DNA from: a virus
Reading direction: 5' to 3' (one strand)
IMG/VR virus record: IMGVR_UViG_3300020469_003886
Coordinates: 28,103-92,102 of that record
DNA length: 64,000 nucleotides
The notes under the pieces: generated by a model
The model's input: only the letters and a program-made list of their open reading frames with translations
Database searches by the model: none
What the model was told of the DNA's origin: nothing
Translations under genes and position numbers: made by a program
Part shown: one piece after another, positions 16,459-44,963 of the stretch
Layout: every line of letters begins with the position of its first letter
Position numbering within the stretch: the first letter of the stretch is position 1

Positions 16459-17709
16459 CTATGCTGACATAGACTTTGTTAAGGATTGTAAAGTATTATG
16501 ATTTTTCATATATGGCGAAAAATACCCAATTTTTTTAGATAATTGTTCGTCATCGTATGGAATCTTTCGAGAAATCCAACCTACAATATTATCTGCATCT
16601 TCTGTTTCTGGATGATAATAATGTCGATGATCGCATATCTCATATCTAATATCTGTGTAATTGTCAATGCATTCAGCAAAAAATTTATTATATGCAAAAT
16701 CTTCTTTAATAGAATCTAACATATCTAAATTTATAATGAAACATTGTCTTACTAATTCTTTTTCACTGCCTGTTTTCCAACCAGCAATTGGTGTTGTCAT
16801 ATCTAAATTATTAACATAATCAATTATACTGTTGTCAGTCCAAACATACCCACCAAACGCAACCAGCACTTTTTTGAATCCTTTTTTCTTTAAACCTTTT
16901 AAAAATTTTAAATCTCCTTTAAAAGGCTGAGTTGTTACTGCAATATTTTCAAATCCATGATCTATCATATTAAGAATTGTCATTGTTGCCATCCAATCAG
17001 TTTGCTTTGGAAGTACATGCATATCTTTATTCCATACTGCATAACATACGTCATTATCAGAATTATAGTTGTAAACTGTTTTTGTTTCAGCATAATCTAA
17101 ATTTACAGTTAATCTAATTACTAAAGAATTACGTTCTACACCCAACGTTGGCTTATGCCAAGAATTATTATTCGATATCATAATGTATCCTTGATTTGGC
17201 AAGAATTTTTTTCTATACATTTCATTATCAGCATTATCAACAAACTGTGTTCCATATTGTTCTAGATTGTTGTCTTTAGGAAGATAAATTTGCAATGTTA
17301 TTGTTGATAAACTATTTTTTTGGTCTGTATGTGCTTTATCAATTTGATGCTCATATTCAGTATGAAAACTTATCCTTGATGATGTTAATTCAGCAACTTG
17401 ATCAATATTATCAAAATTAAATTTTTTAAGTATTTGTTTTTTAAAGTCATTTGTTTTTGTGTAGTTCCATAATTCTTTGTAAAAAGAATCTTTGTTTGCT
17501 ATTTCATCAAATATTATAATTGACGGTTCTGTTCCTTGGGGAGGAGCATCTGAATGTGTATACAATTTTTTAAAGTCTTCAATATCATGTGCAATCTTTT
17601 GATAATGCTCATTTGTAAAAAAATCACATATATCAAATGCTGTTACATGATGCTCGACTTCACTAATTGTGTCTGCTTCTTTTATTTTTTTATCAATATA
17701 ATCAAACAT
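16459..17709 (-). CDS. 2OG-Fe(II) oxygenase-like domain plus unknown C-terminal domain
   Basis: HTD...TLQIYLP...GT.F...SWH...R pattern. Confidence 0.6.
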   Translation of the reverse strand: MFDYIDKKIKEADTISEVEHHVTAFDICDFFTNEHYQKIAHDIEDFKKLYTHSDAPPQGTEPSIIIFDEIANKDSFYKELWNYTKTNDFKKQILKKFNFDNIDQVAELTSSRISFHTEYEHQIDKAHTDQKNSLSTITLQIYLPKDNNLEQYGTQFVDNADNEMYRKKFLPNQGYIMISNNNSWHKPTLGVERNSLVIRLTVNLDYAETKTVYNYNSDNDVCYAVWNKDMHVLPKQTDWMATMTILNMIDHGFENIAVTTQPFKGDLKFLKGLKKKGFKKVLVAFGGYVWTDNSIIDYVNNLDMTTPIAGWKTGSEKELVRQCFIINLDMLDSIKEDFAYNKFFAECIDNYTDIRYEICDHRHYYHPETEDADNIVGWISRKIPYDDEQLSKKIGYFSPYMKNHNTLQSLTKSMSA

Positions 17710-17807: not shown

Positions 17808-18026
17808 TTACTTATTATACTTTATATCTGTTTTTGCTTGGCTATAAGCATAATATACTGCACCTACTAGGAATATGAATCCCATAGCAACTATATGCCC
17901 CCATGCTTCACTTTGCATTTGGCCACCTACAAATTTGCCAATTTCAATTCCAGCATAGCCAAAACCAAATATTGCCACTAAAAATAATAATGCATGTGTA
18001 AGATGTTTTAAAAAATATTTCGTCAT
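17808..18026 (-). CDS. Small two-TM membrane protein
   Basis: 72 aa hydrophobic ORF; GAGG SD. Confidence 0.7.
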   Translation of the reverse strand: MTKYFLKHLTHALLFLVAIFGFGYAGIEIGKFVGGQMQSEAWGHIVAMGFIFLVGAVYYAYSQAKTDIKYNK

Positions 18027-18076: not shown

Positions 18077-19300
18077 CTATATATTGTCAAGAGATTCTTT
18101 TAACAAAGGTGAAACTTTTTCTAAAGATTCATTTCTTGATTTATCAACCCCATCAGTATATTCTTTGAACCTTGGAATATATTTACTCCAATCTTCTGCC
18201 ATCATGTAATTTATAAGTCCTTCAACTTTGTCTTGTTTAATCCAAGGTTGTAATCGTTTTGCCGCTTCTTCTTTTAAGTTTTGTGGCAGTACTCTAACAT
18301 TTAAATAATCAGGATGATCGAGTATGTTTAAATATGGAAAATACCCAAACTGCATTGTGTATTCAAATAATTCATTTAAATCTAGTACATTGTATATTTG
18401 TACTGTAGAATGGACTTGTACTCTCATTTTACCTTGTTTTTCCATTTCAGCGAATGCTGATAAATTTTTATGTACAGATTTCCAGTTAGTTGGATATCTA
18501 ATATATCTGTTTAATTGATCATATCCGTCTATAGATGCATTTATTTTAATTTTTTTAAAATGTTTCCAATAGTCAATCATCTTTGGTGGAATATTTGTTA
18601 AGTTTGTATTGTATTTTAAAATAATATCTTTTGCTTTGTTTAGTTCAATACAACGATCAAATAGTTTATATTGTTCAAGTGCAAGTGTAGGCTCACCACC
18701 TGTAAGATATATTTCTTCTACAGTATCGATTATTGGCATAAGATTTTCCCAAGTACTTTCATTTGTTGGCCAATTCATATGTGCTAATCTATCACGTTCT
18801 TGTTGATCAATTGTTGATCCATCATATGATGTTGTTGTGTTCCATTCTTCTACCCATTGATTTGATGCCCATGGGTTACACATTCTACATCTTAAATTAC
18901 ACAAGTTACCTAAACGTAAATCAACATATACACCTTTAACAGGTGCTGTTCCATCTTCTTTGGTATTTTCTAATGCTTCTTGAATATGTTCTTTATAAGA
19001 TTCGTTAAAACCTTCACGTGCAGATTTTATACCTGTTGCTTCTTCTCTCCAACATCTCACGCACATCTTTGGTTTTTTTCCATCCAGTAAGTCTTTACGT
19101 AAATCTTTGTATACTTTTGTATTCCATATTTCGTCTGGAGAATTTTTGTAAATTTTATATGGTGCACCAGATTCATCTGTGATAAAATTTTCTCCAGGAG
19201 TTGAATTACAGCACACACGATAATTTCCACTTGAATTAGTAGCAACGTGCATCCATGGTAATATACAAAAAGTATTAGACTGTTTCATATGTTCCTTCAA
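18077..19300 (-). CDS. Radical SAM protein with N-terminal twitch/SPASM-like Cys domain
   Basis: CILPW..RVCC..CVRC, then CNLRCRMC, TGGEP, YNTN, ASIDG. Confidence 0.9.
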   Translation of the reverse strand: MKEHMKQSNTFCILPWMHVATNSSGNYRVCCNSTPGENFITDESGAPYKIYKNSPDEIWNTKVYKDLRKDLLDGKKPKMCVRCWREEATGIKSAREGFNESYKEHIQEALENTKEDGTAPVKGVYVDLRLGNLCNLRCRMCNPWASNQWVEEWNTTTSYDGSTIDQQERDRLAHMNWPTNESTWENLMPIIDTVEEIYLTGGEPTLALEQYKLFDRCIELNKAKDIILKYNTNLTNIPPKMIDYWKHFKKIKINASIDGYDQLNRYIRYPTNWKSVHKNLSAFAEMEKQGKMRVQVHSTVQIYNVLDLNELFEYTMQFGYFPYLNILDHPDYLNVRVLPQNLKEEAAKRLQPWIKQDKVEGLINYMMAEDWSKYIPRFKEYTDGVDKSRNESLEKVSPLLKESLDNI

Positions 19301-20558
19301 ATAATTCTGTTAGTTGTGGTACAACATTTTTAATATTTGTATTTCTTATACTATCTAGTTTGTTGGTAAACCATAAAAATTCTTTTAAATGTCTTTGCTG
19401 TTGGTCTTGTGTAAAGTGTTTACTGTTCGCTAAATTACTTATCAAATCACCAAATCCTATATCACCTTGCCCTATTGGTTCTCCAGGTGGGAAATAATCA
19501 CCAATTGGTAAATCAGCATTTTTTAATATTTCGTGAGCTTGTAATCTATATTTTTCTGGCAATACATGAATGTTCAAGTATCGAGGATTTGCTACAATAT
19601 TTCTAAAATAAATTTCGTCATGTGGTTTTCTATTCTTAATATACCATTTCCAAATATTAACAAGATCAAAAATATTATAAACCTGTACTGTTACTGTGTA
19701 TATTAAAGTTGTATTTGCTAACCTATTAAAAAAGTTTTTAATATTATTTTCTAATTGGTCAATATCAAAACTATCCCCGCCACGTATATACTCATAAAGT
19801 TTACCTGTACCTTCAATACTCACATGAAACTTTACTGCTTTAAATTCGTTTGTAATATGTTTTAATCTTTCATTTATAACTGTTCCGTTTGTGTTGATAT
19901 CCAAAGTAACATTCTTAGCAATTCCCCATTCTATAAATTTTTCCATGATCTGATAATTTTGGTCTTCCATCAACGGCTCGCCGCCAGTTAATTTTAAAAC
20001 TTCTAAATTTAAAAAATAATTTTTGTTTTCTAATAAATTTTCAATAATACTGAATTCTAATTTAAAATATTCGCCCTTGTCTCTGTCAGGCATCCAATCT
20101 GGTTTGTTTGATGCTAGTTTAACTTCATCTTTTATCCATGAACTAGAAACTGGTCCGCAACACATACGACATTTAAGATTACACTTGTTTGATGAATTAA
20201 TTTCTAAATATAATATATCTGGTAGTGCATTAGGATCGTATGACGTTTGTTTTGCTATTTCAGGATCTATATTGTTATAAAAATATAGTCTACGAGAATA
20301 ACCTGAAGAAGTTTCTTTTAAAATACATTGTTGACACACAGGATTATCTGTTTTTCCATTACTCCAGTCTGATCTTAACTTGACTGCTATATCATTGCTC
20401 CACATCTGTGATAACGTGTTTTTATATAAATTACCATATGGAAACCTAGCCACAGCATCAGCATACACATTGCCTTCCCAGTTAATGGTTAAACTGTGCC
20501 ACGGTGCTAGACATTTTTTGTCTATTTCTTTATGCCAATTCCAATCACGCTGTGCCAT
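19275..20558 (-). CDS. Radical SAM protein with N-terminal SPASM-like domain
   Basis: CLAPW..GNL..CQQC; CNLKCRMC; TGGEPL; NTNG. Confidence 0.9.
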   Translation of the reverse strand: MAQRDWNWHKEIDKKCLAPWHSLTINWEGNVYADAVARFPYGNLYKNTLSQMWSNDIAVKLRSDWSNGKTDNPVCQQCILKETSSGYSRRLYFYNNIDPEIAKQTSYDPNALPDILYLEINSSNKCNLKCRMCCGPVSSSWIKDEVKLASNKPDWMPDRDKGEYFKLEFSIIENLLENKNYFLNLEVLKLTGGEPLMEDQNYQIMEKFIEWGIAKNVTLDINTNGTVINERLKHITNEFKAVKFHVSIEGTGKLYEYIRGGDSFDIDQLENNIKNFFNRLANTTLIYTVTVQVYNIFDLVNIWKWYIKNRKPHDEIYFRNIVANPRYLNIHVLPEKYRLQAHEILKNADLPIGDYFPPGEPIGQGDIGFGDLISNLANSKHFTQDQQQRHLKEFLWFTNKLDSIRNTNIKNVVPQLTELFEGTYETV

Positions 20559-20559
20559 A

Positions 20560-21645
20560 TTAAAAATAATTTTCTTGCTTACCTTTACGTCTTACATCAG
20601 ATGTTAAACAATGAATACCACCATCCCAAAAATACTGATGCCTAAACTTCCAATATATTGGTGTAACACCTTTGCTTTCTAATTGTTTAAATACTTCTTT
20701 ATCTGCACCTGTACAAATAACTTTATCTTCTGATAAACTTAATGTGTTTACATCAAACACCGTTTCGTCTACATATCCAATCCAATGTGACAACCAACGT
20801 TCAATGTATTCTTTATAAAATCTTTGCTTACGTGTGTTTTTAAAATCTTCTGGAAACTTTGTGCCTTTGCCACCAACAACAATACAATCCCATGATTTAA
20901 GTTTTTCTGGTAACCAATCTTTTTTCCATGTCATTAATAGTCCTGGTTTGAGCAATGCAATCTTTCCATCGACATGTCCACCTACAGGAACTTCATTAAA
21001 TGTAAACTCAGGCAATTGCTGTTTATACCAGTGTAAACCTTGTTCAGTGCCTTTGCCTTTTTCAGGGTCTTTTTGATTTGATTGCGAATGAAATATGTCT
21101 TTACCACATTTGATTAAATTTGCTGAATGAAATAATATTTCGCCATGCCTCCAATAATCGTGATAGGTTTTTTGATTGAGTTGAGGTTGTGGCATAGATA
21201 TCCACTCTGCACCATACGTATGATATTCTTTTAATATATCTCTTGAACACAGTGTTTCTAAATATCTTGAAGTATCTTTTGTGTATGCTTCAATAATCTT
21301 ATTGCCAAAGAATCCAATTAAATCCCTTGGTTGTAATGGTTGATTAATCCAATCAATTTCAAACTCGCCTACTGTATATTTTTGCAAAGGGTTATGTAAA
21401 GGTGTTGGTCTTTGTACAATTATGCTTTCTTTTTTTAATATATCAACTAATACTTCTAAATCTTCTGCTGTTTCTGTTAATACTTTTTTTAATAAGTCTT
21501 TTGCTTCTTGACTAAACTGGTCACTTGAATCAAAAGTATTAGGGTCATATGCTGTTCCTACAATCACTTCTTCGAGTGGTTGAAACTCTGTATATGAACT
21601 TACTAAAGATTTATCACTAAAAAAACTGCTGTAATCATTTACCAT
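20560..21645 (-). CDS. Amidinotransferase (pentein family; glycine/inosamine-phosphate type)
   Basis: EFQPLEEVIVG, PRD, HVDG, FDVN, GGIHCLT (Asp-His-Cys triad). Confidence 0.88.
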   Translation of the reverse strand: MVNDYSSFFSDKSLVSSYTEFQPLEEVIVGTAYDPNTFDSSDQFSQEAKDLLKKVLTETAEDLEVLVDILKKESIIVQRPTPLHNPLQKYTVGEFEIDWINQPLQPRDLIGFFGNKIIEAYTKDTSRYLETLCSRDILKEYHTYGAEWISMPQPQLNQKTYHDYWRHGEILFHSANLIKCGKDIFHSQSNQKDPEKGKGTEQGLHWYKQQLPEFTFNEVPVGGHVDGKIALLKPGLLMTWKKDWLPEKLKSWDCIVVGGKGTKFPEDFKNTRKQRFYKEYIERWLSHWIGYVDETVFDVNTLSLSEDKVICTGADKEVFKQLESKGVTPIYWKFRHQYFWDGGIHCLTSDVRRKGKQENYF

Positions 21646-21647
21646 TA

Positions 21648-22208
21648 TTAAACTCCATCTATATCATATTTGCTATCATGATATCTTCTTTTTACTATTG
21701 CATCATAATATCTCTTGTCCCAATTATCATAGTATTTTGTGCTTCTATGAATCCATTCTGATTTTTCATTTAAGTCTGAAAGTACTTGTATTTGTATAAT
21801 TGCTAAACCTTTATTACCAGAACCTAACCCAGGAATAAGTTTATCAGTATTTTTTTCAACTCCTACAGATCCTTGCTTTTCTTCAGACTTGTATGATGTG
21901 TAAATGTATAAATCATCAGCAACTGCTGTTGGTTGATTATCATTTTCCCATTCTTCAAGTTCTGTTAAAGAATAGTCTTTTGGATCACCAATACATAATA
22001 CCAACTGCTTATCTTTAGGATAATTTTTAATAACATCATCTGCAATTTTAAACATATCTTTTTTTACCCATCTAACTTCAACTTCATTACGTCTAAATCC
22101 CATTTTTGCAAATGGACAAATAGCCATACCATTAAGCTCTGGTCTTGGTTTAGTGACATGTTCTTTCATGTCTTCCCATTTTTTTTCTAAATCAGATTGT
22201 TCCGCCAT
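21648..22208 (-). CDS. Hypothetical protein with CPFA motif (DUF1415-like)
   Basis: LNGMAICPFAK; C-terminal YY.NW. Confidence 0.5.
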   Translation of the reverse strand: MAEQSDLEKKWEDMKEHVTKPRPELNGMAICPFAKMGFRRNEVEVRWVKKDMFKIADDVIKNYPKDKQLVLCIGDPKDYSLTELEEWENDNQPTAVADDLYIYTSYKSEEKQGSVGVEKNTDKLIPGLGSGNKGLAIIQIQVLSDLNEKSEWIHRSTKYYDNWDKRYYDAIVKRRYHDSKYDIDGV

Positions 22209-23661
22209 GCTCTAATTCTTTTTCTAACTTGGCACTAATTTTTTCTCCAAGTTCGGATTGTTTTGCATTGTCTTTTGTTTCGTCAAGTAATCCAGCCATT
22301 TCAGGAAATACTTTGGTAAAATCAGTTCCTCGTTGTTTATCAAATTTTATAATGTATTCTCTAAACTGTGGCATACGTTGTGACCAGTCTTCACTCATCA
22401 TAAACTTAACCATACCTTGCAATCGTTTAATACCATAACTTGCTTCCATAAATTTTTCTTTTGACGGGGCTCCAGACATTTTCCAATTTTCTTCTAACCA
22501 TGGATAAAAATCTTCATACTTTTGTTTTACTTCATCTTTAAACCATTGTGGAAATACTTTTACATTTAATTGACCAGGCCAGTATACAAAGTGATAATTA
22601 ATCATTCCAGCACCAAAAGGCCATATGTTAATTTTTTTAAAGTTTTGTTTTAATTTCCATTTAATAAAATCTGGAACGTAATAAATGTTTAGTGCCTGTA
22701 CAGCACACGCCACAGTAACTTCAACATTGTCACCTGTGTTATCTAGCAAATGAAACTGTTTTACAGTGTGTTCCCATTCACTTGGATATCTAATATAGTC
22801 ATTCATTTCACCAATTGAATCTACTGAATAATGAAATATTACTTTTTTAAAATGACTCCATATTTCAAATAATCTTGGTGGCATTTCTAATCCATTTGAA
22901 TTATATCTTATTTCAATTTGTTTAGCATATCCACGTTTAATAACTTCTTCTAATAGTGTGTAGTGTTCTTCAATAATGGTTGATTCACCACCTGCAAAAT
23001 ATAGTTGATACATGTGTGGTATTTGTTCATACAATTGATCCCAGAACTTTGGATTATCTTTGTGCCAGTTATATGTTGCACCGTCGTTTTTTCCTTTGTT
23101 ATCCCAACCCATTGTTTGCTTTAAATCTTTATTTTCAATAGTAGGATAAACATCCAACCAATCTTTAATCCATAAAGATGAATCATGTGGCGAACACATA
23201 ATACATTTCAGATTACATTTAGATCCCATACGTAGATCTAAGTATCTAATTTTAGGAGGTATCCCACCATCTTCTGCTGTTTCACCTATAATTTCATCAA
23301 TAGAATAAATGCTGGTCCATTTGTCTGTTTCCCATTGACGTTTACTTAAATGTCCTGCCGCTTCTTCTTTGTAGCACTTTAAACATGATGCAGGCATTTC
23401 GCCATTAAGCATCTGCTTACGAACATTTTTCATATAGTCGTTGTTCCAGGCTTCCATCAAATTTGAATTGTTTAAGTTTGCAGGTTTACCACTTTCAGTT
23501 TTTAATACACCTACTTGCCCGCCGTGTTTTTTGTCATTGGTTGCTCCAACTGAACTTGCATTCGCTGTACAGCATACTCGCATGTTACCGTCTGGTCTTG
23601 TTGATAAATGCATCCAAGGCAAAGCACAAAATGTTTTTGATGGTAAGTTTTTTTCACTCAT
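22192..23661 (-). CDS. Radical SAM protein with N-terminal twitch domain
   Basis: CALPW..RVCC..CLKC; CNLKCIMC; AGGE; YNSNG. Confidence 0.9.
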   Translation of the reverse strand: MSEKNLPSKTFCALPWMHLSTRPDGNMRVCCTANASSVGATNDKKHGGQVGVLKTESGKPANLNNSNLMEAWNNDYMKNVRKQMLNGEMPASCLKCYKEEAAGHLSKRQWETDKWTSIYSIDEIIGETAEDGGIPPKIRYLDLRMGSKCNLKCIMCSPHDSSLWIKDWLDVYPTIENKDLKQTMGWDNKGKNDGATYNWHKDNPKFWDQLYEQIPHMYQLYFAGGESTIIEEHYTLLEEVIKRGYAKQIEIRYNSNGLEMPPRLFEIWSHFKKVIFHYSVDSIGEMNDYIRYPSEWEHTVKQFHLLDNTGDNVEVTVACAVQALNIYYVPDFIKWKLKQNFKKINIWPFGAGMINYHFVYWPGQLNVKVFPQWFKDEVKQKYEDFYPWLEENWKMSGAPSKEKFMEASYGIKRLQGMVKFMMSEDWSQRMPQFREYIIKFDKQRGTDFTKVFPEMAGLLDETKDNAKQSELGEKISAKLEKELEHGGTI

Positions 23662-23678
23662 TTTAAATATTTACCTTC

Positions 23679-24797
23679 CTATTGTGTAACAAAATTATCT
23701 TCAAATTGTGCTCCAAACGGATCAAATTCTGTACCGCATTTTACTGAACAAACTTTTAGTTTTCCGTCTCCGCCTGAACAAGATTTCTTTTTCCAACTTG
23801 ATTTAATGTCATTAAAAAATTCACCGTCTAATACTTTTTTAAATCCGTGCTGTAGAACTGACATCTCGTCAAGACCACCTGCGTTGTCAATAAATTTCCA
23901 AATCTGATTTTGTCCTGGCTTTTCCCACCATTTGTACATTTGTCCTGCTACCCAGCAACATGGCATCAAATGTCCTGATGCACTAACATACACATTCATG
24001 TCTTTCAATACTTTACAATTAATTCTTGCTTGATTGTAGTATTCGTCCATAGAGCCGTATTTTTCTATTAATGGATCTACTTTTTTAAGAGCTTTGTTTA
24101 CATACTTTTCGTTTGGCTTTGTTAATTTTTGTGTTTCTTTACCTTTGCGATTAACACCTTGATGTTCTTCTTTACCTTTTGCTTTCACGTTACTAAAAAA
24201 TCTACCAGTTTTTTTACTCATAAATTTTTCAAAACCCATACGTTCTGATAATGCTTCTGCTTCTTCTACTTGATGTTGATTGTGTCCAAATATTAAGTAA
24301 TCCCATCTTGCTCTACCACCAGCATCAATAAATGCCTGTGCTGAATCCATACATATATCCCAATTAACATTTTGTCTGTATAAATGATTAGTATCTTTTA
24401 ATCCATCTAAACTAAAAATTACATGACCTTTTCTTCCTATTACTCGTGCAAGTTCTCTCCACCATTCAGATTTTTTAGCACCAGCATTGGTGTTCATGCT
24501 CAACCAAATATTTGGATTTTGACTACGTAGATATTCCATTACTTCTAATGAGTCTTTAGCCACTACAGGATCTCCAAGATTTCCGCACATAAACAAACTG
24601 TCTAATTGTTTTACAAATTCAGAAGGGAAAATTTTTTTGCAATCTTCTAAAGATAGTTCATCTAAAGTTATGTTAGGATTAATGTCACCACCGTTTATAT
24701 TTCTGTCACATTGTAGGCAAGCGGCTTGGCATTTGGCCGTAATTTCTAAGTGAACTGTGCGTATATCTTCATATCTATACATATCATTTGATTCCAA
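23679..24797 (-). CDS. Radical SAM protein with C-terminal SPASM/twitch domain
   Basis: CQAACLQC, CGNLGDP, FSLDG, C..PCCW..CSVKC. Confidence 0.9.
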   Translation of the reverse strand: MESNDMYRYEDIRTVHLEITAKCQAACLQCDRNINGGDINPNITLDELSLEDCKKIFPSEFVKQLDSLFMCGNLGDPVVAKDSLEVMEYLRSQNPNIWLSMNTNAGAKKSEWWRELARVIGRKGHVIFSLDGLKDTNHLYRQNVNWDICMDSAQAFIDAGGRARWDYLIFGHNQHQVEEAEALSERMGFEKFMSKKTGRFFSNVKAKGKEEHQGVNRKGKETQKLTKPNEKYVNKALKKVDPLIEKYGSMDEYYNQARINCKVLKDMNVYVSASGHLMPCCWVAGQMYKWWEKPGQNQIWKFIDNAGGLDEMSVLQHGFKKVLDGEFFNDIKSSWKKKSCSGGDGKLKVCSVKCGTEFDPFGAQFEDNFVTQ

Positions 24798-25848
24798 TAA
24801 TCATATATCTTATGTATTTACCGAGAATTAGATGACCTCCATATAGGTGTGTTGTCATAGGTGCAATTGATTTAAAATGGTCAACATTATCTACGCAGTT
24901 AATATGTTCTGGTAATTCTTTATAATCGTTTGATTGTAAAATGCACAATTTTCCTTTAGGAATATTGTTCCACCATTCATTCCAATTTTCAATATGCTCA
25001 CAACTTGTATTGATAATAGTGTTTGGAGAATCATGCAATTCTCTTTCTGTTCCATTTGATCTTAGAGTATTAAATGTATATTCATTAAAATTAATTTTGT
25101 GTATGTCTTGCGTTGTTGCTTTAAACTGCCAATCTTTCATAACCCATGGTTTATTAATTGACTCAGCAATTTGCCAACATGTTGGATCAATATCAAAACT
25201 TCTTATTTTATCTAAATGTATTTTTTTAGATTCAAACAGCATAGTTGCTAATGTACCATACCAACCTGCACATAAAAATACAGTGCCTAGATGCATACCA
25301 ATTTTTTCAACTTCAGATACCAACCACTTTTTACTATGCAATTGTCCTCTTGCATACGCATCTTTAACATTAAGTCTTGGAAAACTTCTGATAGTTTTTG
25401 GTAATGTTGTTAATACCTCACTATCAACAAACAATCTCAATACATCAAAACTTTCACCTTTATTAATAATTGCTTTTCTAAGCATTTCCATTTTTGGATT
25501 ATTTTCAATATATTCTAATACTCTAAATATTGCATGTACATTTTTTTCAAGTACTGCTTTTCTAAATTCATCATAATGCTCATTATCTAATTCATCAATA
25601 ATTCTAAAAACTGAATGTAAATTAGATTCAATAATTGCTTTTCTAAATTCTTCAAATTTTTCTGGATTGTCAGATATAGATTGTGCCAGTCTAAATATTG
25701 ATGACAAGTCTTCATCAATTACTGCACGTCTAAGATCTTTTAACTCATCAATATTGTCATACAATAATTCAAATCTATCTAATAACTCGTGCGTCTCTAG
25801 ATGAGATTTGGATTTTGTTGAACTGTTGTCCAAGCCAGCCAAAGTCAT
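24784..25848 (-). CDS. Class I SAM-dependent methyltransferase-like protein with N-terminal tandem repeats
   Basis: LCAGWYG, SFDIDP, IINTSCEH; four ~30 aa repeats of (L/F)R(K/R)A(I/V)...(I/V)FR. Confidence 0.65.
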   Translation of the reverse strand: MTLAGLDNSSTKSKSHLETHELLDRFELLYDNIDELKDLRRAVIDEDLSSIFRLAQSISDNPEKFEEFRKAIIESNLHSVFRIIDELDNEHYDEFRKAVLEKNVHAIFRVLEYIENNPKMEMLRKAIINKGESFDVLRLFVDSEVLTTLPKTIRSFPRLNVKDAYARGQLHSKKWLVSEVEKIGMHLGTVFLCAGWYGTLATMLFESKKIHLDKIRSFDIDPTCWQIAESINKPWVMKDWQFKATTQDIHKINFNEYTFNTLRSNGTERELHDSPNTIINTSCEHIENWNEWWNNIPKGKLCILQSNDYKELPEHINCVDNVDHFKSIAPMTTHLYGGHLILGKYIRYMIIGIK

Positions 25849-26506
25849 TTATCTTACTCAATGCCTCCATATTATTTTTGTTTGTTTCACCATATTCTCT
25901 ACCAGCAATGGCCCCTGCTATAGCATATTCGCCAAAGCCTCTTTCATTACCAACAGAGCACCATATATCTAATCTCTGCTCTGTTTCTGCATCTTTTTGT
26001 TTATCAATTACTTTTGATGCCAGTTTAGTGCATTCTCTAAATGCAGATTTAAATGTATTAAAAGGATCTGTGTTAAATGCTGTTGTGTTGCTTATAGTTG
26101 GCATGGCTTTAAATGCACCTTTTTTACCTTCTTTGTTTGCAACTGATGTTGTAAAATCAATTCTCCAATCTTTTGCATCACGCAAGGATTGTGTTGGAAA
26201 CAATTTAACACCACCATATCCATACACTAAATCGTTAATAGGATTTCTACATCTCCATACATGTACACAGTGTTCATCCCATTTATCTGGTTTAAATGAA
26301 AAATCAAACTGATCTTCTAATTCTGCATCAGCATCAACTACATAAAAACTTTTTGTATATGCCAATTCTGCACAACGTTTGTGTGCTTCAAAAATTCCTT
26401 TTACTCCTTGCACTCTGCGAGCATAAGGAAATCTACTTACAAGTTTTTCCCATGTTTGATCAGCATAAGGTTCTTGGTAACTTAAATGAAATATATCTAG
26501 TGCCAT
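25775..26506 (-). CDS. Glycosyltransferase-like (GT-A, DxD) protein
   Basis: GVKGIFEAH..C, FYVVDADA, YGYGGVKLF. Confidence 0.55.
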   Translation of the reverse strand: MALDIFHLSYQEPYADQTWEKLVSRFPYARRVQGVKGIFEAHKRCAELAYTKSFYVVDADAELEDQFDFSFKPDKWDEHCVHVWRCRNPINDLVYGYGGVKLFPTQSLRDAKDWRIDFTTSVANKEGKKGAFKAMPTISNTTAFNTDPFNTFKSAFRECTKLASKVIDKQKDAETEQRLDIWCSVGNERGFGEYAIAGAIAGREYGETNKNNMEALSKINDFGWLGQQFNKIQISSRDARVIR

Positions 26507-26524
26507 ATGTTTATTATACTTGTT

Positions 26525-26725
26525 TTATTTGAAATAATCAAGAGGAAATGAATAAATTCCTAATATTTCTATGTCTGGGTGTGCTAGTTTAATTAGAACA
26601 AATTGCTCATCTGTTACAGCAATAATATTATCTGCATGATTAGGAATATATGTTCTTGGTAAACTTTTGTCTTTTGCTAACCGATTGTGTTTAGTTTGGT
26701 CTGTATATCCAACTAAGGTGTACAC
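26525..26725 (-). CDS. Hypothetical protein
   Basis: 66 aa; GTG start overlaps the clpP stop. Confidence 0.5.
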   Translation of the reverse strand: MYTLVGYTDQTKHNRLAKDKSLPRTYIPNHADNIIAVTDEQFVLIKLAHPDIEILGIYSFPLDYFK

Positions 26726-27306
26726 TACCTTTTTTCAACAATTTTATCAATTAGACCAAATTCTAATGCTTGATCTGGATTCATGTAATTATCACGTTCC
26801 ATTGCATCTTCAACTGTTTTAAGATCTTTGCCACAGTGTTTTACATACAAATCATTTAATCTTTTCTTTGTGTCTAAAATGTCTTTTGCATGAATTTCAA
26901 TATCTGTTGCTTGTCCTTGGAATCCTGCTGATGGTTGGTGTATCATTATTTTTGAATTTGGTAATGATATCCTTTTGCCGGCTGTACCTGCCATTAATAA
27001 TAATGATCCTGCACTTGCTGATAAGCCAATACTTACTGTTGAAATATCTGGTTGTACATATTGCATAGTATCATACATTGCCAATCCTGCTGTTACAGAA
27101 CCGCCTGGCGAATTAATATACATGTAGATATCCTTATCTTTAGATTCAGATTCTAAAAACAATAACTGAGCACAAACCAAACTTGATGTTGCATCATTTA
27201 TTGGACCAGTAATAAAAATAATTCTTTCTTTTAATAAACGTGAAAAAATATCATAACTTCTTTCACCTCTTGACGATTGTTCAACAACCATTGGTACTAG
27301 ATTCAT
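26725..27306 (-). CDS. clpP: ATP-dependent Clp protease proteolytic subunit
   Basis: [24 protein letters not shown] (Ser), MIHQP (His), ERD (Asp). Confidence 0.96.
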
Positions 27307-27316
27307 ATTCATCTCC

Positions 27317-28813
27317 TTAGACATTAAATTCAACTCCTTGTGCTAATGGCAAGTCTGTTGAGTAATTTACCGTTACTGTGCTTCTACGCATGTATTGTTT
27401 CCATGCATCTGAACCACTTTCTCTTCCACCTCCAGTGTGTTTTTCACCACCAAAGGCGCCGCCAATTTCAGCCCCACTAGGACCAATATTAACATTTACA
27501 ATACCACAATCAGATCCATTTGCTCCAATAAACAATTCTGCTTCTTGTAAATCTTTTGTAAAGATACAACTGCTTAAACCTTGTGGTACGTTATTGTTAA
27601 TTGCTATTGCTTCTGCTAGTTCATCATATGGCATGATGTAAAGCAATGGTGCAAAAGTTTCTGTTTTTGTAATTTCTTCTGCTTTAGTTAATTCAACTAT
27701 TGCTGGTGTTACATATACCCCATCACGTTCTAATTTTGTTCCGCCAGTAACAGTTCCAATACCTTGTTGCTCACATTGTGCCATTGTGTCTTTCATATTT
27801 TCATATGCTTGTTCACTAACCAAAGGTCCTACTAATGTGTTGCTGTCTAAAGGATCACCAACTGTAATTTTTGCGTAATATTTTTTAAGAATTTTTACCA
27901 ACTGTTCGTGAATTGATCTATGCACAATAACTCTACGTAATGTTGTACATCTTTGACCTGCTGTACCTACTGCACTAAACAATATAGCTCTAATTGCCAA
28001 CTTCATATCTGCATTTGGTGTAACTATCATTGCATTGTTGCCACCAAGTTCCATCAGCACTCTACCAAATCTTTCAGTAACTTGTTTACCTAATGTTTGC
28101 CCCATTGCTGTTGATCCTGTTAGTGAAACAAGATTAATATGTTTATCATTTGCTAACCATTCTGCAGGTTCGTTAGCACCTACAACAAGTTCTAATATGT
28201 TTTGTGCTTGGGGTATGCCAGAACGTTCAACTGCTTTTTTAAATATTGCCTCACAAGCATAAGATACCAAAGGTGTCTTAGGTGACGGCTTCCAAAGTGT
28301 TGTGTTACCACACACTGTTGCAATAGCAAAGTTCCAACTCCACACTGCTACAGGAAAGTTAAATGCTGAAACAACTCCAACTACTCCTAATGGATTCCAC
28401 ATCTCTTGCATACGGTGTCCTGGTCTTTCACTTGGCATTGTTAATCCGTATAACTGTCTTGATAATCCAACTGCGAAATCGCAGATATCTATCATTTCTT
28501 GTACTTCACCTAAACCTTCTTGAAATATTTTACCGTTTTCGATAGTAACTAATTTCCCAAGTTCGTTTTTGTGCTTACGAAGTTCTTCACCAAACAATCT
28601 AATTACTTCACCTCTTTGTGGTGCTGGAATTGTTCTCCATTCTATTTGTGCTTGTTTTAAATTTAGTACCTTTGCTTCATACTCTTGTTTAGTAGTATGT
28701 TTTACTGTGGCAATTTCAGTAGCATCGATTGGGGATACTACTGAGTTGCCATTTGGTACTGTATATAAGTTTTGATCTACGCCTATAGATTCTAATATTT
28801 GTTTTACATTCAT
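27317..28813 (-). CDS. ALDH7-family aldehyde dehydrogenase (aminoadipate-semialdehyde / piperideine-6-carboxylate dehydrogenase type)
   Basis: [79 protein letters not shown]. Confidence 0.92.
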
Positions 28814-29145: not shown

Positions 29146-29454
29146 TTAAATTCCTAATGCTAATCTGGCCTCTTCACTCATCATATCTTGAGAAAAAGGT
29201 GGATCAAATGTTGTTTCAATAAAACAGGAATCAACTCCTTCAACATCCATAGCCGCATGTTTGATATCTGCTACAATTTGGTCTGCCGCTGGACAAAATG
29301 CTGATGTTAATGTATGTGTGATACAAGCCTTTGGTAGTTCTGATAGATCAATATTATATATCAATCCAAGATCATAAATGTTGATAGATATTTCAGGATC
29401 ATACACTTCACGTAAGTTTTCAATAATTTTTTCTTTTGTTTGGTCTGGGGTCAT
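29146..29454 (-). CDS. DUF59/SufT (MIP18-like) Fe-S assembly protein
   Basis: VYDPEI.INIYDLGLIY, TLTSAFCP, TFDPPF..MMSEEARLALG. Confidence 0.92.
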   Translation of the reverse strand: MTPDQTKEKIIENLREVYDPEISINIYDLGLIYNIDLSELPKACITHTLTSAFCPAADQIVADIKHAAMDVEGVDSCFIETTFDPPFSQDMMSEEARLALGI

Positions 29455-30020
29455 ACTGCTTCAACTGTATGTACTTCTGAGATGTAATGTTTTAACATAT
29501 TTTCAATGCCCATTTTGAGAGTTGCTGTCGAGCTCGGACAGCCTGAACAAGCACCATACATTTCTAAATACACAGTTCCATTTTCAAAACTGTGAAAAAT
29601 AATATCTCCGCCATCCATTGCTACTGCTGGTCTTACACGTTCATCAAGTAGTTGGACTATTTTTTTTGTGATTTTATCTGTACCTGCATCATCATTAATT
29701 GTTTCACAAGCAGGTTTTGTTTCTTCAACAATAAATGGTCCTTCACTGTGATATCTAATTGTTTCTGTAATATCGCTTTTGATATCTTCCCATTCTACTG
29801 TGTCGTCTTTACCTACTGTAATAAAGTCTGACCCAAAAAATACATCTTGTATTCCATTTATTTTAAACAGTGCGTATGCCACAGGAGCATCTGCAGATGG
29901 ATTACCTTCAGGATCTTTTTTATAAAAAAGTGGTGTTTTGTTGCCTCTGACATCTACGTTAGGTAAGAATTTTAAAGCATTTGGATTTGGGGTTAATTCT
30001 GTTTGTATCATCATTTCCAT
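29451..30020 (-). CDS. Nfu/NifU-family Fe-S carrier (Nfu_N plus NifU_C)
   Basis: TPNPNALKF, RVRPAVAMDGGDI, GACSGCPSS.ATLK.GIE. Confidence 0.93.
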   Translation of the reverse strand: MEMMIQTELTPNPNALKFLPNVDVRGNKTPLFYKKDPEGNPSADAPVAYALFKINGIQDVFFGSDFITVGKDDTVEWEDIKSDITETIRYHSEGPFIVEETKPACETINDDAGTDKITKKIVQLLDERVRPAVAMDGGDIIFHSFENGTVYLEMYGACSGCPSSTATLKMGIENMLKHYISEVHTVEAV

Positions 30021-30058: not shown

Positions 30059-31024
30059 TTATTTTAATTTTGATTCAAATTCTCTCAAACGTTTGTATAC
30101 ACTTGCAAGTTCAATAATAGTAGGCCATGCTTTTAATAGATATTGCATTGATCCTTCAACTCTTCCAAATGCTCTTATGATTTGTTGCATCACACCAAGT
30201 GTAACAACACCTGCTACAATGGCTGGTGCTAAAAATACATAAGCACTTAAAACGTTTGCTTGTAAATATGCCATACGTCCTACGTTAAAATACAAATAAC
30301 GTACATAACTTTTAAAGTGAATACTACGAACATCTGCAAACAGTTCATCAATTTTTTTTGGTCTTACATTTCCATCGTCTTCTGCAATAACTAATATTTT
30401 TCTGTATGCCGCTTCTTGTTTTTGAAGATCATATTCTACACCAACTAGTCGTAATACCCAACCTAGTCCTATTAAAAATATTGTTCCACCAAGTGTCCAA
30501 ACTAATGCACCTGTAATTAATCCATATTGCCAATCACCAAAAAAGAAAATTGGTATTCCAATTGATAATCCAAACAGTATAGGTATAAATTGTATTAATA
30601 TCATTACTGCTTCAATTAGACTTGTGCCTAGTGATTCCATAATACGTGAAAATTTAACTGTGTCTTCTTGTACCCTTTGTGATGCACCTTCTATTTTTCG
30701 TGCTTTGTCATAAACACTGTGATACCACTCAACCATTGCTGTTCTCCAACGGAATAAAAAATGTGCTGTAAAGAAACTTATTAAAACATAAAGTCCAACA
30801 TACATACCTGCTAAAGTAATAAAAGAAAGAAGGCTTGCAAAATACTCTTCGATTGTAATTGCATTTGGTTCTGCAAGTGCTTTTTGTATCATATCATAAA
30901 AAACACCAAACCATTCGTTAATTTTTACGTCAATTTCTACTTGGACCCACAATGAAGATAAAATAATTGCTGATCCGAGCCATGCCCACAATAACCACTT
31001 TCTGGTTGTAAAGAATCTAAACAT
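30059..31024 (-). CDS. SbmA/BacA-like peptide transporter
   Basis: INEWFG.FYDMIQKAL, FRWRTAM, IEGASQRVQEDT, EAAYRK.LV, W.TIIEL.SVYKRLREFE. Confidence 0.9.
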   Translation of the reverse strand: MFRFFTTRKWLLWAWLGSAIILSSLWVQVEIDVKINEWFGVFYDMIQKALAEPNAITIEEYFASLLSFITLAGMYVGLYVLISFFTAHFLFRWRTAMVEWYHSVYDKARKIEGASQRVQEDTVKFSRIMESLGTSLIEAVMILIQFIPILFGLSIGIPIFFFGDWQYGLITGALVWTLGGTIFLIGLGWVLRLVGVEYDLQKQEAAYRKILVIAEDDGNVRPKKIDELFADVRSIHFKSYVRYLYFNVGRMAYLQANVLSAYVFLAPAIVAGVVTLGVMQQIIRAFGRVEGSMQYLLKAWPTIIELASVYKRLREFESKLK

Positions 31025-32584: not shown

Positions 32585-33148
32585 TTAGTTACCTTTCTGC
32601 TCTACAACTCGCTCAACTAATTTTTCTGCTTGTAATGTTCTATAACGTTCTAGATCTTGATCTAATCTAAAGTATTGAACTTTAAGAATTGTACTTGTAA
32701 TCAAACCTGTTAGGGTTGTATATAATGCTGTTGACATGCCAACTGCCATACTTGCTAATGCAGTTTGTACCGATGAAACGTTTGCAATATTAATTCCTGT
32801 AAAAGCACCTGCCAACATGAGAATAAACCCTGCTACTGTTCCTATCAAACCAAGTGTTAGTAGTACATCTGATGCAAACCAACCTGGTTCGTGTCTTGTA
32901 TCTAAATTTTCTAATTTGTGTAACTCGCCATTTGCAAGTTGGCTTAATTTCCAACTTTCATACCCACAATGTAATGTCATTGAATAAAATATAAAAAGAA
33001 TAAAAAATGATAATTTAGTTTTGTCGTTTGTCCATAAATCTTCGTGTACACCAAAACCTACTAAAACAACTGTCAATGCTATAATAAGTGTAAAGAACCA
33101 CCACCATTTAAGAAATATACTGTGTTTAGTTAATGATTTAATTGCCAT
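32585..33148 (-). CDS. MotA/TolQ/ExbB proton-channel family protein
   Basis: LGLIGTVAGF...GMSTALYTTLTGL. Confidence 0.88.
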   Translation of the reverse strand: MAIKSLTKHSIFLKWWWFFTLIIALTVVLVGFGVHEDLWTNDKTKLSFFILFIFYSMTLHCGYESWKLSQLANGELHKLENLDTRHEPGWFASDVLLTLGLIGTVAGFILMLAGAFTGINIANVSSVQTALASMAVGMSTALYTTLTGLITSTILKVQYFRLDQDLERYRTLQAEKLVERVVEQKGN

Positions 33149-44597: not shown

Positions 44598-44963
44598 TTA
44601 ATCTCCTGTTCCAGGGTTTTCAGAAAGAAGATCTCTTTTGGATTTTTGGTCTGGCATTTTATCTGGACCATATTCTTCTGCTTCTGGTAACGCATCTTTC
44701 TTTTTTGTTATATTTGGCCATGTCTTACTGTACTCAGTATTTATGTGTATCCAATAGTCTAATTCACTTTTTGCAATATTTGGATCTGTATCTGCCACAA
44801 TTGCATCAACAGGACACTCTGGTTCGCATACACCACAGTCTATACATTCATCTGGATTGATTGCTAAAAAGTTTTCACCTTCGTAAAAACAATCAACTGG
44901 ACAAACTTCAACACAGTCTGTATGTTTACATTTTATACACTCATCTTTTACTATGTACGTCAT
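44598..44963 (-). CDS. fdxA: 7Fe ferredoxin (FdxA type)
   Basis: [38 protein letters not shown]; C-terminus PG.GD. Confidence 0.93.

Follow-up and report, generated by a model that had tools for sequence, protein, structure and literature searches.

Eight overlapping or abutting genes (g1–g8) occupy positions 18077–26506 on the minus strand of the window, the 64,000-nt stretch of an uncultured giant-phage fragment that we analysed, and we judge, with confidence a little above even, that they form one island of a radical-SAM-based toolkit for sugar (glycan) tailoring in a marine jumbo phage lineage. This reading is built on established gene identities, folds, conservation of the gene set and a sugar-enzyme neighbourhood in relatives.

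An eight-gene block and its coupling

25775–26506, minus: g1, 243 aa, GT-A fold with a helical C-terminal domain (AlphaFold2, Foldseek/VIA)
24784–25848, minus: g2, about 349–354 aa, helical repeats and class I SAM-methyltransferase fold (AlphaFold2, Foldseek)
23679–24797, minus: g3, 372 aa, radical SAM enzyme with a C-terminal auxiliary Cys domain (Pfam, NCBIfam)
22192–23661, minus: g4, 489 aa, N-terminal-twitch radical SAM enzyme of family NF033640 (437 bits)
21648–22208, minus: g5, 186 aa, CPFA-motif accessory protein (family motifs)
20560–21645, minus: g6, 361 aa, pentein amidinotransferase (matches to HsvA, StrB1, SxtG and AGAT)
19275–20558, minus: g7, 427 aa, NF033640 radical SAM enzyme (267 bits)
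18077–19300, minus: g8, 407 aa, NF033640 radical SAM enzyme (413 bits)
26513–26541, minus: sigma-70-like promoter candidate, TTGATT-N17-TATAAT (10 of 12 matches)
58030–59097, minus: g3-type radical SAM paralogue (26% identity to g3, E 2e-37)

A sequence-only reading of this DNA had described eight contiguous, mostly coupled genes transcribed from one promoter. The eight minus-strand open reading frames do fill the interval, and because their junctions are overlaps of 14–74 nt or gaps of 1–17 nt they are tightly coupled (the start of g2 is ambiguous, at ATG 25848, TTG 25842 or TTG 25833). The single promoter fares less well: a site at 26541–26513, ending 6 nt ahead of the g1 ATG, is plausible, but promoter-like sites across the region show no excess over shuffles (76 vs. 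72), so that it is a candidate only. The clustering itself is real and far above chance, since the full operon is syntenic in four close loci (L008–L011), the gene set is kept, with extra radical SAM paralogues, in five distant loci (L012–L016), and the operon families are clustered in 78 bacterial and 80 viral loci. A lack of co-occurrence in relatives had been proposed earlier as grounds for refutation; in these loci the genes do occur together.

Radical SAM enzymes, amidinotransferase and fold-level transferases

Pfam and NCBIfam confirm four radical SAM enzymes in the operon, three of them with an N-terminal auxiliary domain, as had been read from the letters. g4, g7 and g8 match NF033640 (N_Twi_rSAM, twitch domain-containing radical SAM protein) end to end and above its 170-bit cut-off, with SPASM-model matches at the N-terminus (residues 12–97 of g4, 16–78 of g7 and 12–84 of g8). 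g4 carries C12, C30, C31, C93 and C96 along with core C149/153/156, and g8 carries C12, C30, C31, C80 and C83 along with core C134/138/141; g7 has only three N-terminal Cys (C16, C75 and C78; core C126/130/133) and lacks the CC pair of the N-terminal motif of this family, which is catalogued only. g3 has the core motif C23-x3-C27-x2-C30 (CxxxCxxC, residues 23–30), six C-terminal Cys (C261, C280, C281, C340, C350 and C354) and two paralogues in its own genome (28% and 26% identity). The gene diverging most between relatives is g7 (58–62% identity in three of the four close loci, 33–37% in distant loci), g4 orthologues in distant loci retain 63–64% identity, and cellular homologues of g8 (29–50% identity) come mostly from Bdellovibrionota. 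Among solved structures, the N-terminal domain of the N-twitch profile is matched best by the twitch domain of BtrN (4m7t; 2-deoxy-scyllo-inosamine dehydrogenase), whose substrate is an amino-cyclitol or sugar alcohol; profile positions 5–78 align with BtrN 184–257 (E 9e-6). In BtrN this domain is C-terminal, whereas in g4, g7 and g8 it precedes the radical SAM core, and there is no overall orthology.

Searches of Pfam, NCBIfam and PHROGs return no match for g1, g2 or g5, nor does the PDB for g5. The g5 family (663 representatives in a profile search) has an invariant C31-P-F/Y-A motif, which upholds the earlier call of a CPFA protein, and a C-terminal YYxxW. A natural fusion (P0324) joins an N-twitch radical SAM enzyme to a g5 domain, and g5 is probably the partner of the N-twitch enzyme encoded just upstream. 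g6, undetected by Pfam and NCBIfam models, aligns over its full length with HsvA (5wpi, E 8e-28) and StrB1 (1bwd, E 3e-27) and also with SxtG (6u1r) and AGAT (1jdw; E about 1e-26 to 1e-28), so the pentein amidinotransferase call holds as well. It conserves D108 (PRD), H224, D226 and C346, thus keeping the nucleophilic Cys, the His and the Asp residues holding the guanidinium; however, H172 stands where StrB1 has the catalytic-triad Asp179, a change fixed in a g6 clade common to these phages and Bdellovibrionota, and the activity of g6 may therefore differ.

AlphaFold2 models support a GT-like g1 and a methyltransferase-like g2 at the level of fold only, and to that level the earlier calls of both are sustained. 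Residues 1–147 of g1 are modelled as a GT-A (nucleotide-diphospho-sugar transferase) fold (pLDDT 89.5) with an invariant D58-x-D60 (DxD) in the family alignment, matching ppGalNAc-T, WrtF, PBCV-1 A64R and SunS (Foldseek E 5e-4; VIA Z 10–11.5 over 147 residues), a fold match shared by sugar-nucleotidyltransferases such as IspD. At sequence level g1 matches no GT family, and none of 3373 g1 homologues has a Pfam domain. g2 is modelled (pLDDT 87) as N-terminal alpha-helical repeats (residues about 19–155) followed by a class I SAM-methyltransferase fold (about 160–354) matching CFA synthase, NodS, PMT-2 and DOT1L (Foldseek E 5e-7, probability 1.0); its 2130 homologues vary in length and share an invariant NTSCEH at residues 280–285. 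The virus-encoded GT-A domain of PBCV-1 A064R (2p6w, 2p72, 2p73) is among the top g1 matches, and that protein also joins a transferase to a methyltransferase domain in decorating virion glycans, which would parallel the pairing of g1 with g2. A064R has no sequence similarity to g1 or g2 and no radical SAM partner, and a virion-protein role for the phage pair is putative.

SPASM/twitch radical SAM enzymes are best known as peptide maturases, which counts against a sugar substrate. As mainstays of RiPP maturation they could instead act directly on protein or peptide (RiPP-like or virion-protein maturation by cross-linking, epimerisation or C-methylation), with g1 glycosylating, g2 methylating and g6 turning Lys/ornithine side chains into homoarginine/arginine. 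The core of the N-twitch profile matches SkfB, CteB, SuiB and YydG; g1 fold matches include the peptide S-glycosyltransferases SunS/ThuS and ppGalNAc-T; the roughly 23 radical SAM genes of a complete relative (G001, a 328-kb phage genome, one of the related contigs that conserve the operon) are dispersed across at least 10 loci, as though each had its own substrate close by; and a tail-fibre gene, found a few genes upstream in many phages, has an IMC domain and lies upstream of the canonical island. Nevertheless, we consider this quite unlikely: no precursor-like small ORF was found in or beside the operon, where g9 (below) and a 66-aa ORF at 26525–26725 without notable features were looked at, an RRE, a leader peptidase and a transporter were likewise not seen, the genes nearby encode nucleotide-sugar enzymes, and we know of no protein amidinotransferase.

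Distribution and sugar-enzyme neighbourhood in relatives

Hundreds of phage contigs carry the same gene kit, as do predatory Bdellovibrio-type bacteria, where the operon families are also clustered on Mb-size Bdellovibrionota contigs; what had been called a phage cluster is thus not phage-specific but also chromosomal. The culturable Ralstonia phage RsoM2USA carries the g1/g2/N-twitch core. Among 50 viral loci anchored on g1, each at least 12 kb, an N-twitch radical SAM gene is present in 47, a g3-type gene in 37, g2 in 35, the amidinotransferase in three and g5 in one. The 78 bacterial loci hold 219 N-twitch, 58 g3-type, 20 g1 and 19 g2 genes, the order g2-g1-NTwi-g3-NTwi recurring as a cassette, and the amidinotransferase appears in four of these loci. 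The core kit is therefore g1, g2, g3 and N-twitch arrays, with the amidinotransferase and g5 as rare add-ons, and the guanidino step does not stand at the heart of the system.

These counts bear on a different explanation, that the operon makes a free small molecule (aminoglycoside-/aminocyclitol-like, or an amidinated polyamine) that would affect the host, e.g. its translation, or competitors, with g6 amidinating inosamine or polyamine as StrB1 or HsvA would. g6 scores equally against StrB1, SxtG, AGAT and HsvA, which we take to be a polyamine amidinotransferase; twitch radical SAM enzymes act in aminoglycoside pathways, BtrN being the best solved match; carbamoyltransferases of the family that neighbours these genes also decorate aminoglycosides; and an SbmA/BacA-type transporter lies 4 kb upstream of the operon. 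We nonetheless find a small-molecule product unlikely, as the amidinotransferase is missing from 94% of g1-anchored loci and so is not the core of the system, the most constant member is the GT-A transferase, the operon shows neither an exporter nor a cyclitol synthase of the DOI or inositol-phosphate synthase type, and dozens of paralogues per genome with tail-fibre adjacency fit surface decoration better. Nothing points to an aminocyclitol specifically.

The neighbours of these genes in relatives point to nucleotide-sugar/glycan tailoring and lend independent support to the sugar-type pathway first proposed from the sequence. In G001, a UDP-Glc/GDP-Man dehydrogenase gene overlaps the start of an N-twitch gene, with a carbamoyltransferase before it and an FNR-like reductase after it. 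The same dehydrogenase family occurs in 11 loci and the same carbamoyltransferase family in 13, and these families are commonest directly upstream of g1 (5 and 11 members, respectively). A PP-loop ATPase lies inside clusters and an FkbM methyltransferase inside L012. In Bdellovibrionota the unlabelled neighbour met most often is GT2 (16 loci), and an SDR is also present; GT2 is absent from G001. A tail-fibre gene, in many phages only a few genes upstream, adds to this neighbourhood. All of these sugar-enzyme neighbours sit outside this operon, in other islands or other genomes.

The relatives also weigh on hypermodification of phage DNA, in which bases would carry a tailored sugar or side chain with positive charge, for instance to evade restriction. 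Radical SAM enzymes, methyltransferases and glycosyltransferases can all feature in the hypermodification of phage DNA, the charge of DNA would be neutralised by a guanidino group, and the invariant Cys-Glu-His of g2 lies, in our reading, just past the fourth strand, at the methyltransferase motif IV position. G001, however, has ThyX and lacks TGT/DpdA as well as any ThyA-type enzyme, by which hmC or hmU is usually made, and this renders a DNA target less likely; DNA-binding or base-flipping domains were not detected, and the same cassette lies beside GT2 genes in Bdellovibrionota chromosomes. We hold this explanation to be very unlikely. Of the three targets named earlier, virion protein, host envelope and DNA, we rank DNA lowest.

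Proposed sugar tailoring and its precedents

17808–18026, minus: g9, 72 aa, small protein resembling a two-helix membrane protein (sequence, synteny)
16459–17709, minus: g10, 416 aa, 2OG-Fe(II) oxygenase-like N-terminal domain and uncharacterised-type C-terminal domain (invariant columns)
29451–30020, minus: Nfu/NifU Fe-S scaffold protein (Pfam Nfu_N 6.8e-25, NifU 2.7e-27)
44598–44963, minus: 7Fe ferredoxin, FdI type (PDB 1frh and 1axq, E 1e-37)

Because we found no characterised member of NF033640 or of the g1 or g2 families, we infer every individual reaction, together with the substrate class, the order of steps and the acceptor. We propose that g3, g4 (with its helper g5), g7 and g8 would edit unactivated C-H positions of a sugar, either nucleotide-activated or already on its acceptor. 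Each would make a 5'-deoxyadenosyl radical, and the twitch auxiliary cluster of g4, g7 and g8 and the C-terminal auxiliary-Cys domain of g3 may take an electron or bind substrate; the chemistry could be BtrN-type alcohol-to-ketone oxidation, epimerisation, deoxygenation or C-methylation. A keto intermediate would then be transaminated. Missing from the operon itself are an aminotransferase, an NDP-sugar synthase, a flippase and a lipid-carrier enzyme. Across the 92-kb fragment there is a single PLP-fold candidate, at a distance of 32 kb, whose 40-bit match to DegT covers a third of that model. An S-amidino intermediate formed on Cys346 of g6 from L-arginine would convert the amine to a guanidino sugar, g2 would methylate it, and g1, with its GT-A fold and DxD motif, would pass on the completed sugar; the likeliest acceptor is a glycoconjugate of the virion (tail fibre) or of the cell surface.

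The phage Nfu/NifU protein is likely to support the many Fe-S enzymes, and the ferredoxin may supply electrons to the radical SAM clusters; together they would build and reduce these clusters, with an FNR-like reductase added in a close relative. g10, placed after tRNA-Glu, has invariant columns H127-x-D129...H185...R193 in its N-terminal domain, aligned with the motifs of prolyl-4-hydroxylase in a weak match (E 0.059), and in L015 and L016 homologues of this domain are encoded immediately upstream of the amidinotransferase; g10 is a possible accessory tailoring enzyme. g9 is syntenic in close relatives and has a strong promoter-like site of its own upstream (18090–18063); it is at most a possible member of the system, and it does not resemble a RiPP precursor.

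The nearest published precedent is the radical SAM and putative glycine amidinotransferase module of Campylobacter phages CP220/CPt10, which carry interchangeable versions of it with no function assigned (Timms et al. 2010, PMC2853527). The earlier word 'undescribed' for the pathway calls for a qualification: a module of radical SAM, amidinotransferase and GT-fold genes was already in print in 2010, with no function given (PMC2853527). The CP220 block is likewise phage-borne and co-oriented. In it a single pentein amidinotransferase gene is surrounded by five radical SAM genes, with a small uncharacterised-type gene directly upstream, and two GT-A (nucleotide-diphospho-sugar-transferase) fold proteins are also encoded, yet detectable homology is confined to the amidinotransferase (26% identity, E 9e-26) and g3/gp083 (21%, E 2e-13). 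The CP220 radical SAM enzymes are short (249–342 aa), and BLAST aligned none of them over full length with g4, g7 or g8, which makes them appear unlike the N-terminal-twitch enzymes; its amidinotransferase keeps the canonical triad Asp in place of the His172 of g6, and the block has a PAP2 phosphatase but no g2-type methyltransferase. Identity between close relatives of our operon is mosaic (g2 59–76%, g7 58–90% and g10 40–84%, vs. 77–92% for g6), and we read this divergence, together with the interchangeable CP220/CPt10 versions, as the behaviour of a variable glycan locus. Glycan islands of the T4-like cyanophage S-SCSM2R also place amidinotransferases (ORF266, 26.5% identity to g6) among glycosyltransferases (GT2, GT25), a radical SAM gene and a DegT-like gene, although 2OG-Fe(II) oxygenases, not radical SAM enzymes, make up most of the oxidative partners there; the source paper names them antibiotic-synthesis genes, a label given without tests (PMC12801897). 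In both CP220 and S-SCSM2R, modules analogous to the operon sit among glycosyltransferases.

Source genome and operon layout

The window (bases 28103-92102) belongs to a 92.1-kb IMG/VR record scored by CheckV as 24% complete; its G+C content is ~33%, nearly every gene lies on the minus strand, and five tRNAs are scattered along it. Phage hallmarks in the genome include a tail-fibre/baseplate-like protein, DNA ligase, class I RNR and a DnaB-type helicase. A close relative, G001, with operon proteins 77-90% identical to those studied here, is a complete genome of 328,149 bp with direct terminal repeats, and we therefore assign the window to a jumbo phage. No match to the operon was found among cultured phages by megablast.

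Eight minus-strand ORFs fill window 18077-26506, with junctions of 14-74 nt overlap or 1-17 nt gap; the start of g2 is ambiguous between ATG at 25848 and TTG at 25842 or 25833.

Genes of the operon (window 18077-26506, minus strand), with the cysteines of the N-twitch enzymes
g1: predicted GT-A-fold protein
g2: predicted methyltransferase-fold protein
g3: radical SAM enzyme with C-terminal auxiliary cysteines
g4: radical SAM enzyme with an N-terminal twitch auxiliary-cluster domain (N-twitch); C12, C30, C31, C93 and C96 precede core C149/153/156
g5: CPFA-motif protein
g6: pentein amidinotransferase family member
g7: N-twitch radical SAM enzyme; N-terminal C16, C75 and C78 only
g8: N-twitch radical SAM enzyme; C12, C30, C31, C80 and C83 precede core C134/138/141

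The gene calls of the sequence-only reading, which comprised four radical SAM enzymes, an amidinotransferase, the CPFA protein and methyltransferase-like and glycosyltransferase-like proteins, all stand. A TTGATT-N17-TATAAT site ends 6 nt ahead of the g1 start codon (ATG), and no other strong promoter-like site occurs until just beyond g8; a single promoter for the whole operon is thus plausible, although such sites are no commoner here than in shuffled sequence. Directly upstream (window 26725-28813) lie two overlapping genes, for an aldehyde dehydrogenase (498 aa, Pfam Aldedh 425 bits) and a ClpP protease (202 aa); both were rejected as operon members, being syntenic in close relatives only and set apart from the operon by 219 nt that contain a promoter-like site. 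Beyond these lie, at window 30059-31024 and 32585-33148, genes for an inner-membrane transporter of the SbmA/BacA family (454 bits) and for a MotA/ExbB-like protein, cargo that is unusual in a phage.

Radical SAM enzymes and their predicted partners

The three N-twitch enzymes match NF033640 (N_Twi_rSAM) end to end, at 437 (g4), 413 (g8) and 267 bits (g7) against a curated cut-off of 170 bits, each over ~1-398 of the model; this entry catalogues an enzyme family without an assigned function. Pfam SPASM matches in all three are N-terminal, ahead of the radical SAM core, and the auxiliary-cluster Cys motif precedes CxxxCxxC, as membership in N_Twi_rSAM entails; g4 and g8 share the pattern C-x17-CC...C-x2-C, then CxxxCxxC. 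The fourth enzyme, g3, is a radical SAM protein with CxxxCxxC at 23-30 and six C-terminal cysteines. Single-sequence PDB searches with g3 and g8 gave no useful match. Seven radical SAM enzymes are encoded on the 92-kb fragment, together with Nfu and a 7Fe ferredoxin. Next to the operon, the 416-aa protein g10 (window 16459-17709) carries the residue pattern HxD...H...R and weakly matches prolyl-4-hydroxylase, which suggests an O2-dependent 2OG oxygenase domain beside O2-sensitive radical SAM enzymes; in the complete relative g10 is duplicated and fused (864-aa ORF), and its identity between close relatives is 40-84%.

The N-terminal domain of the N-twitch profile matches the twitch domain of BtrN (E 9e-6), while its core matches BlsE, a radical SAM enzyme acting on a sugar nucleoside, and the peptide maturases SkfB, CteB and SuiB. 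Direct modification of a protein or peptide strikes us as quite unlikely: against the peptide (RiPP) route, no precursor-like ORF was found in the operon or its flanks, where small ORFs were inspected by eye. Of the small proteins there, g9 resembles a two-helix membrane protein, and an upstream 66-aa ORF has no notable features.

The profile of g5 retrieved 663 relatives from 1.84 billion representatives, nearly all of them stand-alone proteins of 150-190 aa whose cluster members are all named "hypothetical protein"; the same profile found no match in the PDB. In one metagenomic protein, P0324 (572 aa), a complete N-twitch radical SAM enzyme (residues 7-385; hhalign 99.9%, E 2e-33) is naturally fused to a g5-type CPFA domain (residues 404-558; 98.6%, E 5e-16). 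Gene order in the window mirrors P0324, with g5 overlapping the 3' end of the N-twitch gene g4, and this overlap and the fusion together indicate that g5 most likely partners the N-twitch radical SAM enzyme and not the amidinotransferase downstream. An assignment of P0324 as a g5-amidinotransferase fusion was rejected, the partner of g5 in it being the N-twitch enzyme.

Searches of g1, g2 and g5 against Pfam, NCBIfam and PHROGs gave no match, even at E 10, and single-sequence PDB searches with the three gave no useful match; the readings of g1 and g2 come from predicted structures. The AlphaFold2 model of g1, built from a 40-sequence alignment (pLDDT 89.5), places residues 1-147 in a GT-A/nucleotide-diphospho-sugar-transferase fold. 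The top Foldseek matches are all GT-A enzymes (ppGalNAc-T, WrtF, PBCV-1 A64R, GtrB and SunS) at E 5e-4, and VIA Z values of 10-11.5 over the same residues tie with those of IspD-type nucleotidyltransferases. The DxD residues D58 and D60 (VVDADA) are invariant across the 40 homologues, and the GxGxR nucleotidyltransferase motif is not visible at the N-terminus. Placement of g1 in a curated glycosyltransferase sequence family failed, the ESM Atlas yielding only a 0.87 lead to GT2; its own family comprises 3373 homologous proteins (90%-identity clusters). In the g2 model (AlphaFold2, pLDDT 87) helical repeats at the N-terminus lead into a class I SAM-methyltransferase fold (seven-strand Rossmann), and Foldseek aligned many methyltransferases to the C-terminal half (probability 1.0, E 5e-7 to 1e-5). 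Where SAM-binding motif I (GxGxG) would lie, g2 reads FLCAGWYG (C193-A-G-W-Y invariant), and an acidic motif, RSFDID, is a candidate for the acidic residue that would end strand 2; the invariant motifs are FLCAGWY, RSFDID and NTSCEH.

Among solved amidinotransferases, g6 matches HsvA (8e-28, query 7-360), StrB1 (3e-27), SxtG (1e-26) and AGAT (4e-26). It keeps the equivalents of StrB1 Asp108, His227, Asp229 and Cys332 as D108, H224, D226 and C346; the Cys-His-Asp triad (StrB1 Cys332, His227, Asp179) is incomplete, the Asp179 position being His172 (FHSAN). This His-for-Asp replacement is fixed throughout the marine-phage clade and also in all four homologues found in Bdellovibrionota, whereas an FDAAN-type Asp is retained in CP220 gp086, from a Campylobacter phage, and in two other viral homologues (loci L191 and L198). 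We file g6 as a distinct, divergent amidinotransferase subfamily, for which the predicted amidino transfer should not be assumed. That the operon makes a free aminoglycoside- or polyamine-like metabolite we hold to be unlikely.

Distribution of the core kit

The operon is kept in nine viral loci found through g6, four of them fully syntenic; in the other five, which are distant (48-55% g6 identity), it is expanded to ~8-10 radical SAM enzymes. A scan anchored on g1 recovered at least 595 viral-contig stretches. Among 50 g1-anchored loci of at least 12 kb, N-twitch enzymes occur in 47, g3-type enzymes in 37 and g2 in 35, and the amidinotransferase and g5 in three and one, respectively. These counts define a core kit of g1, g2, g3 and N-twitch arrays, usually in that order, and make the guanidino step a rare extra. 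The sole cultured phage with both g1 and g2 is the Ralstonia jumbo phage RsoM2USA, where a g1 paralogue (g1'), an N-twitch radical SAM enzyme, g1 and a g2 methyltransferase domain are encoded by adjacent genes, all annotated as hypothetical; this phage is the cultured handle for the core kit.

Cellular N-twitch relatives (at least 299 stretches) fall overwhelmingly in Bdellovibrionota, several on contigs of 1.5-3 Mb. Across 78 cellular loci we counted 219 N-twitch, 58 g3-type, 20 g1, 19 g2, four amidinotransferase genes and one g5 gene, with g2-g1-NTwi-g3-NTwi (NTwi, N-twitch) as a recurrent cassette. A literature search on Bdellovibrio, radical SAM and glycosyltransferase found no paper on these cassettes. 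The two best nominally cellular N-twitch matches (L022 and L023; 49-50% identity) lie on MAG contigs of 33 kb and 108 kb labelled Crocinitomicaceae and Gammaproteobacteria; both bear phage-like arrays (g2-g3-NTwi...) and may be phage contigs binned into MAGs.

The complete relative, with 439 called genes, carries ~15 N-twitch and ~7 g3-type genes at no fewer than 10 loci, together with one amidinotransferase, one g2 and two g1 genes. Its radical SAM genes total ~23 (~5% of called genes), including a run of four at 74159-79127. The record that contains the window (G000) has a second radical SAM island, near which Fe/Mn superoxide dismutase, a porin-like protein and a UvdE endonuclease are encoded.

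Second radical SAM island
G000:C1:19713-24683 (L021:5714-10684), 3.4-8.4 kb before the window start, minus strand: 266-aa protein of no assigned family, N-twitch enzyme (419 aa), 509-aa protein of no assigned family, g3-type radical SAM/SPASM enzyme (367 aa)

Candidate substrates, acceptors and related modules

The neighbours of these genes in relatives give evidence for sugars as the substrate. One N-twitch gene of G001 is preceded by genes for a NodU/CmcH-type carbamoyltransferase and a UDP-glucose/GDP-mannose dehydrogenase, the latter overlapping its start, and is followed by one for an FAD/NAD ferredoxin-reductase-like protein. The same dehydrogenase and carbamoyltransferase families recur in 11 and 13 g1-anchored viral loci, most commonly directly upstream of g1 (5 and 11 members, respectively). 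A PP-loop (QueC-like) ATPase and additional radical SAM enzymes also lie inside viral clusters, and one cluster (L012) contains an FkbM methyltransferase. Among the Bdellovibrionota a GT2 glycosyltransferase is the commonest unlabelled neighbour (16 loci), and SDR and B12-radical SAM proteins also occur. Outside the window, a 401-aa ORF (G000:C1:12819-14024) whose match to DegT/DnrJ/EryC1 is partial (40 bits, model 33-149), and which has a counterpart at the G001 start, may encode a sugar aminotransferase or a different PLP enzyme of fold type I, for instance a cysteine desulfurase.

We lean, with modest confidence, towards a radical-SAM-driven sugar-tailoring island, each individual reaction of which we infer: in this lineage g6 would give the product its guanidino group, a methyl group would be added, and g1 would transfer the resulting, probably guanidino- and methyl-bearing, product.

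Where the product would be attached is hinted at by ~30 viral loci (among L123-L202) with conserved genes upstream: a Peptidase_G2/IMC-domain protein, four or five intermediate proteins (~310, 116, 290, 290 and 200 aa; no Pfam match), g1 and N-twitch radical SAM enzymes. The Peptidase_G2/IMC domain is typical of tail fibres and tailspikes, and its position upstream of g1 hints at a virion (tail-fibre) acceptor. In G001 this arrangement from IMC protein to g1 is kept at C1:175054-185000 (L120), an island separate from the amidinotransferase operon. Hypermodification of DNA would be a different destination for the product, and a very improbable one in our judgement; against it, G001 encodes ThyX, and neither a ThyA-family enzyme nor TGT/DpdA was found there.

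The closest published precedent comes from the Campylobacter phages CP220 and CPt10, whose module is an interchangeable block of five radical SAM genes and a putative glycine amidinotransferase described in 2010 with no function assigned (PMC2853527). The CP220 module and the operon share several radical SAM enzymes, one amidinotransferase and GT-A-fold proteins in a co-oriented phage block; however, homology to window genes is detectable for two of its parts only, the amidinotransferase and a single radical SAM enzyme, and we therefore regard it as an analogous module with partly homologous parts. BLAST of g5, g1 and g2 against the unassigned neighbours in CP220 and in the T4-like cyanophage S-SCSM2R gave no similarity, Pfam searches of those neighbours returned nothing, and a literature search on Firehammervirus and radical SAM gave nothing on function. 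Glycan genes surround both analogous modules: a PAP2 phosphatase accompanies two GT-A-fold proteins in CP220, and S-SCSM2R has GT2, GT25 and a DegT-like gene as well as 2OG oxygenases. Counts of 12 radical SAM genes have also been noted in marine T4-like genomes (PMC5332604).

No member of the three core families (N-twitch, g1 and g2) has a known reaction. If the sugar-tailoring reading is true, a very widespread uncharacterised enzyme kit does radical chemistry on sugars, which would explain the excess of radical SAM genes in some phages (11-12 in CP220/CPt10, 12 in marine T4-like genomes, ~23 in G001), reveal new sugar modifications, including guanidino sugars, and link the surface biology of phages and predatory bacteria. 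A broader proposal, which taken as a whole we consider doubtful, is that the N-twitch enzymes constitute a new radical glycan-editing class, whose interchangeable arrays would diversify a surface or tail-fibre glycan in jumbo phages and in predatory Bdellovibrionota, both of which invade Gram-negative cells. Their partners would be a GT-A family private to the system, a methyltransferase that bears repeats and, optionally, amidino or carbamoyl add-ons, the former yielding guanidino sugars through an amidinotransferase subfamily whose active site is Cys-His-His; such a class would match the 2OG-oxygenase/GT islands of cyanophages with a radical, O2-independent counterpart.
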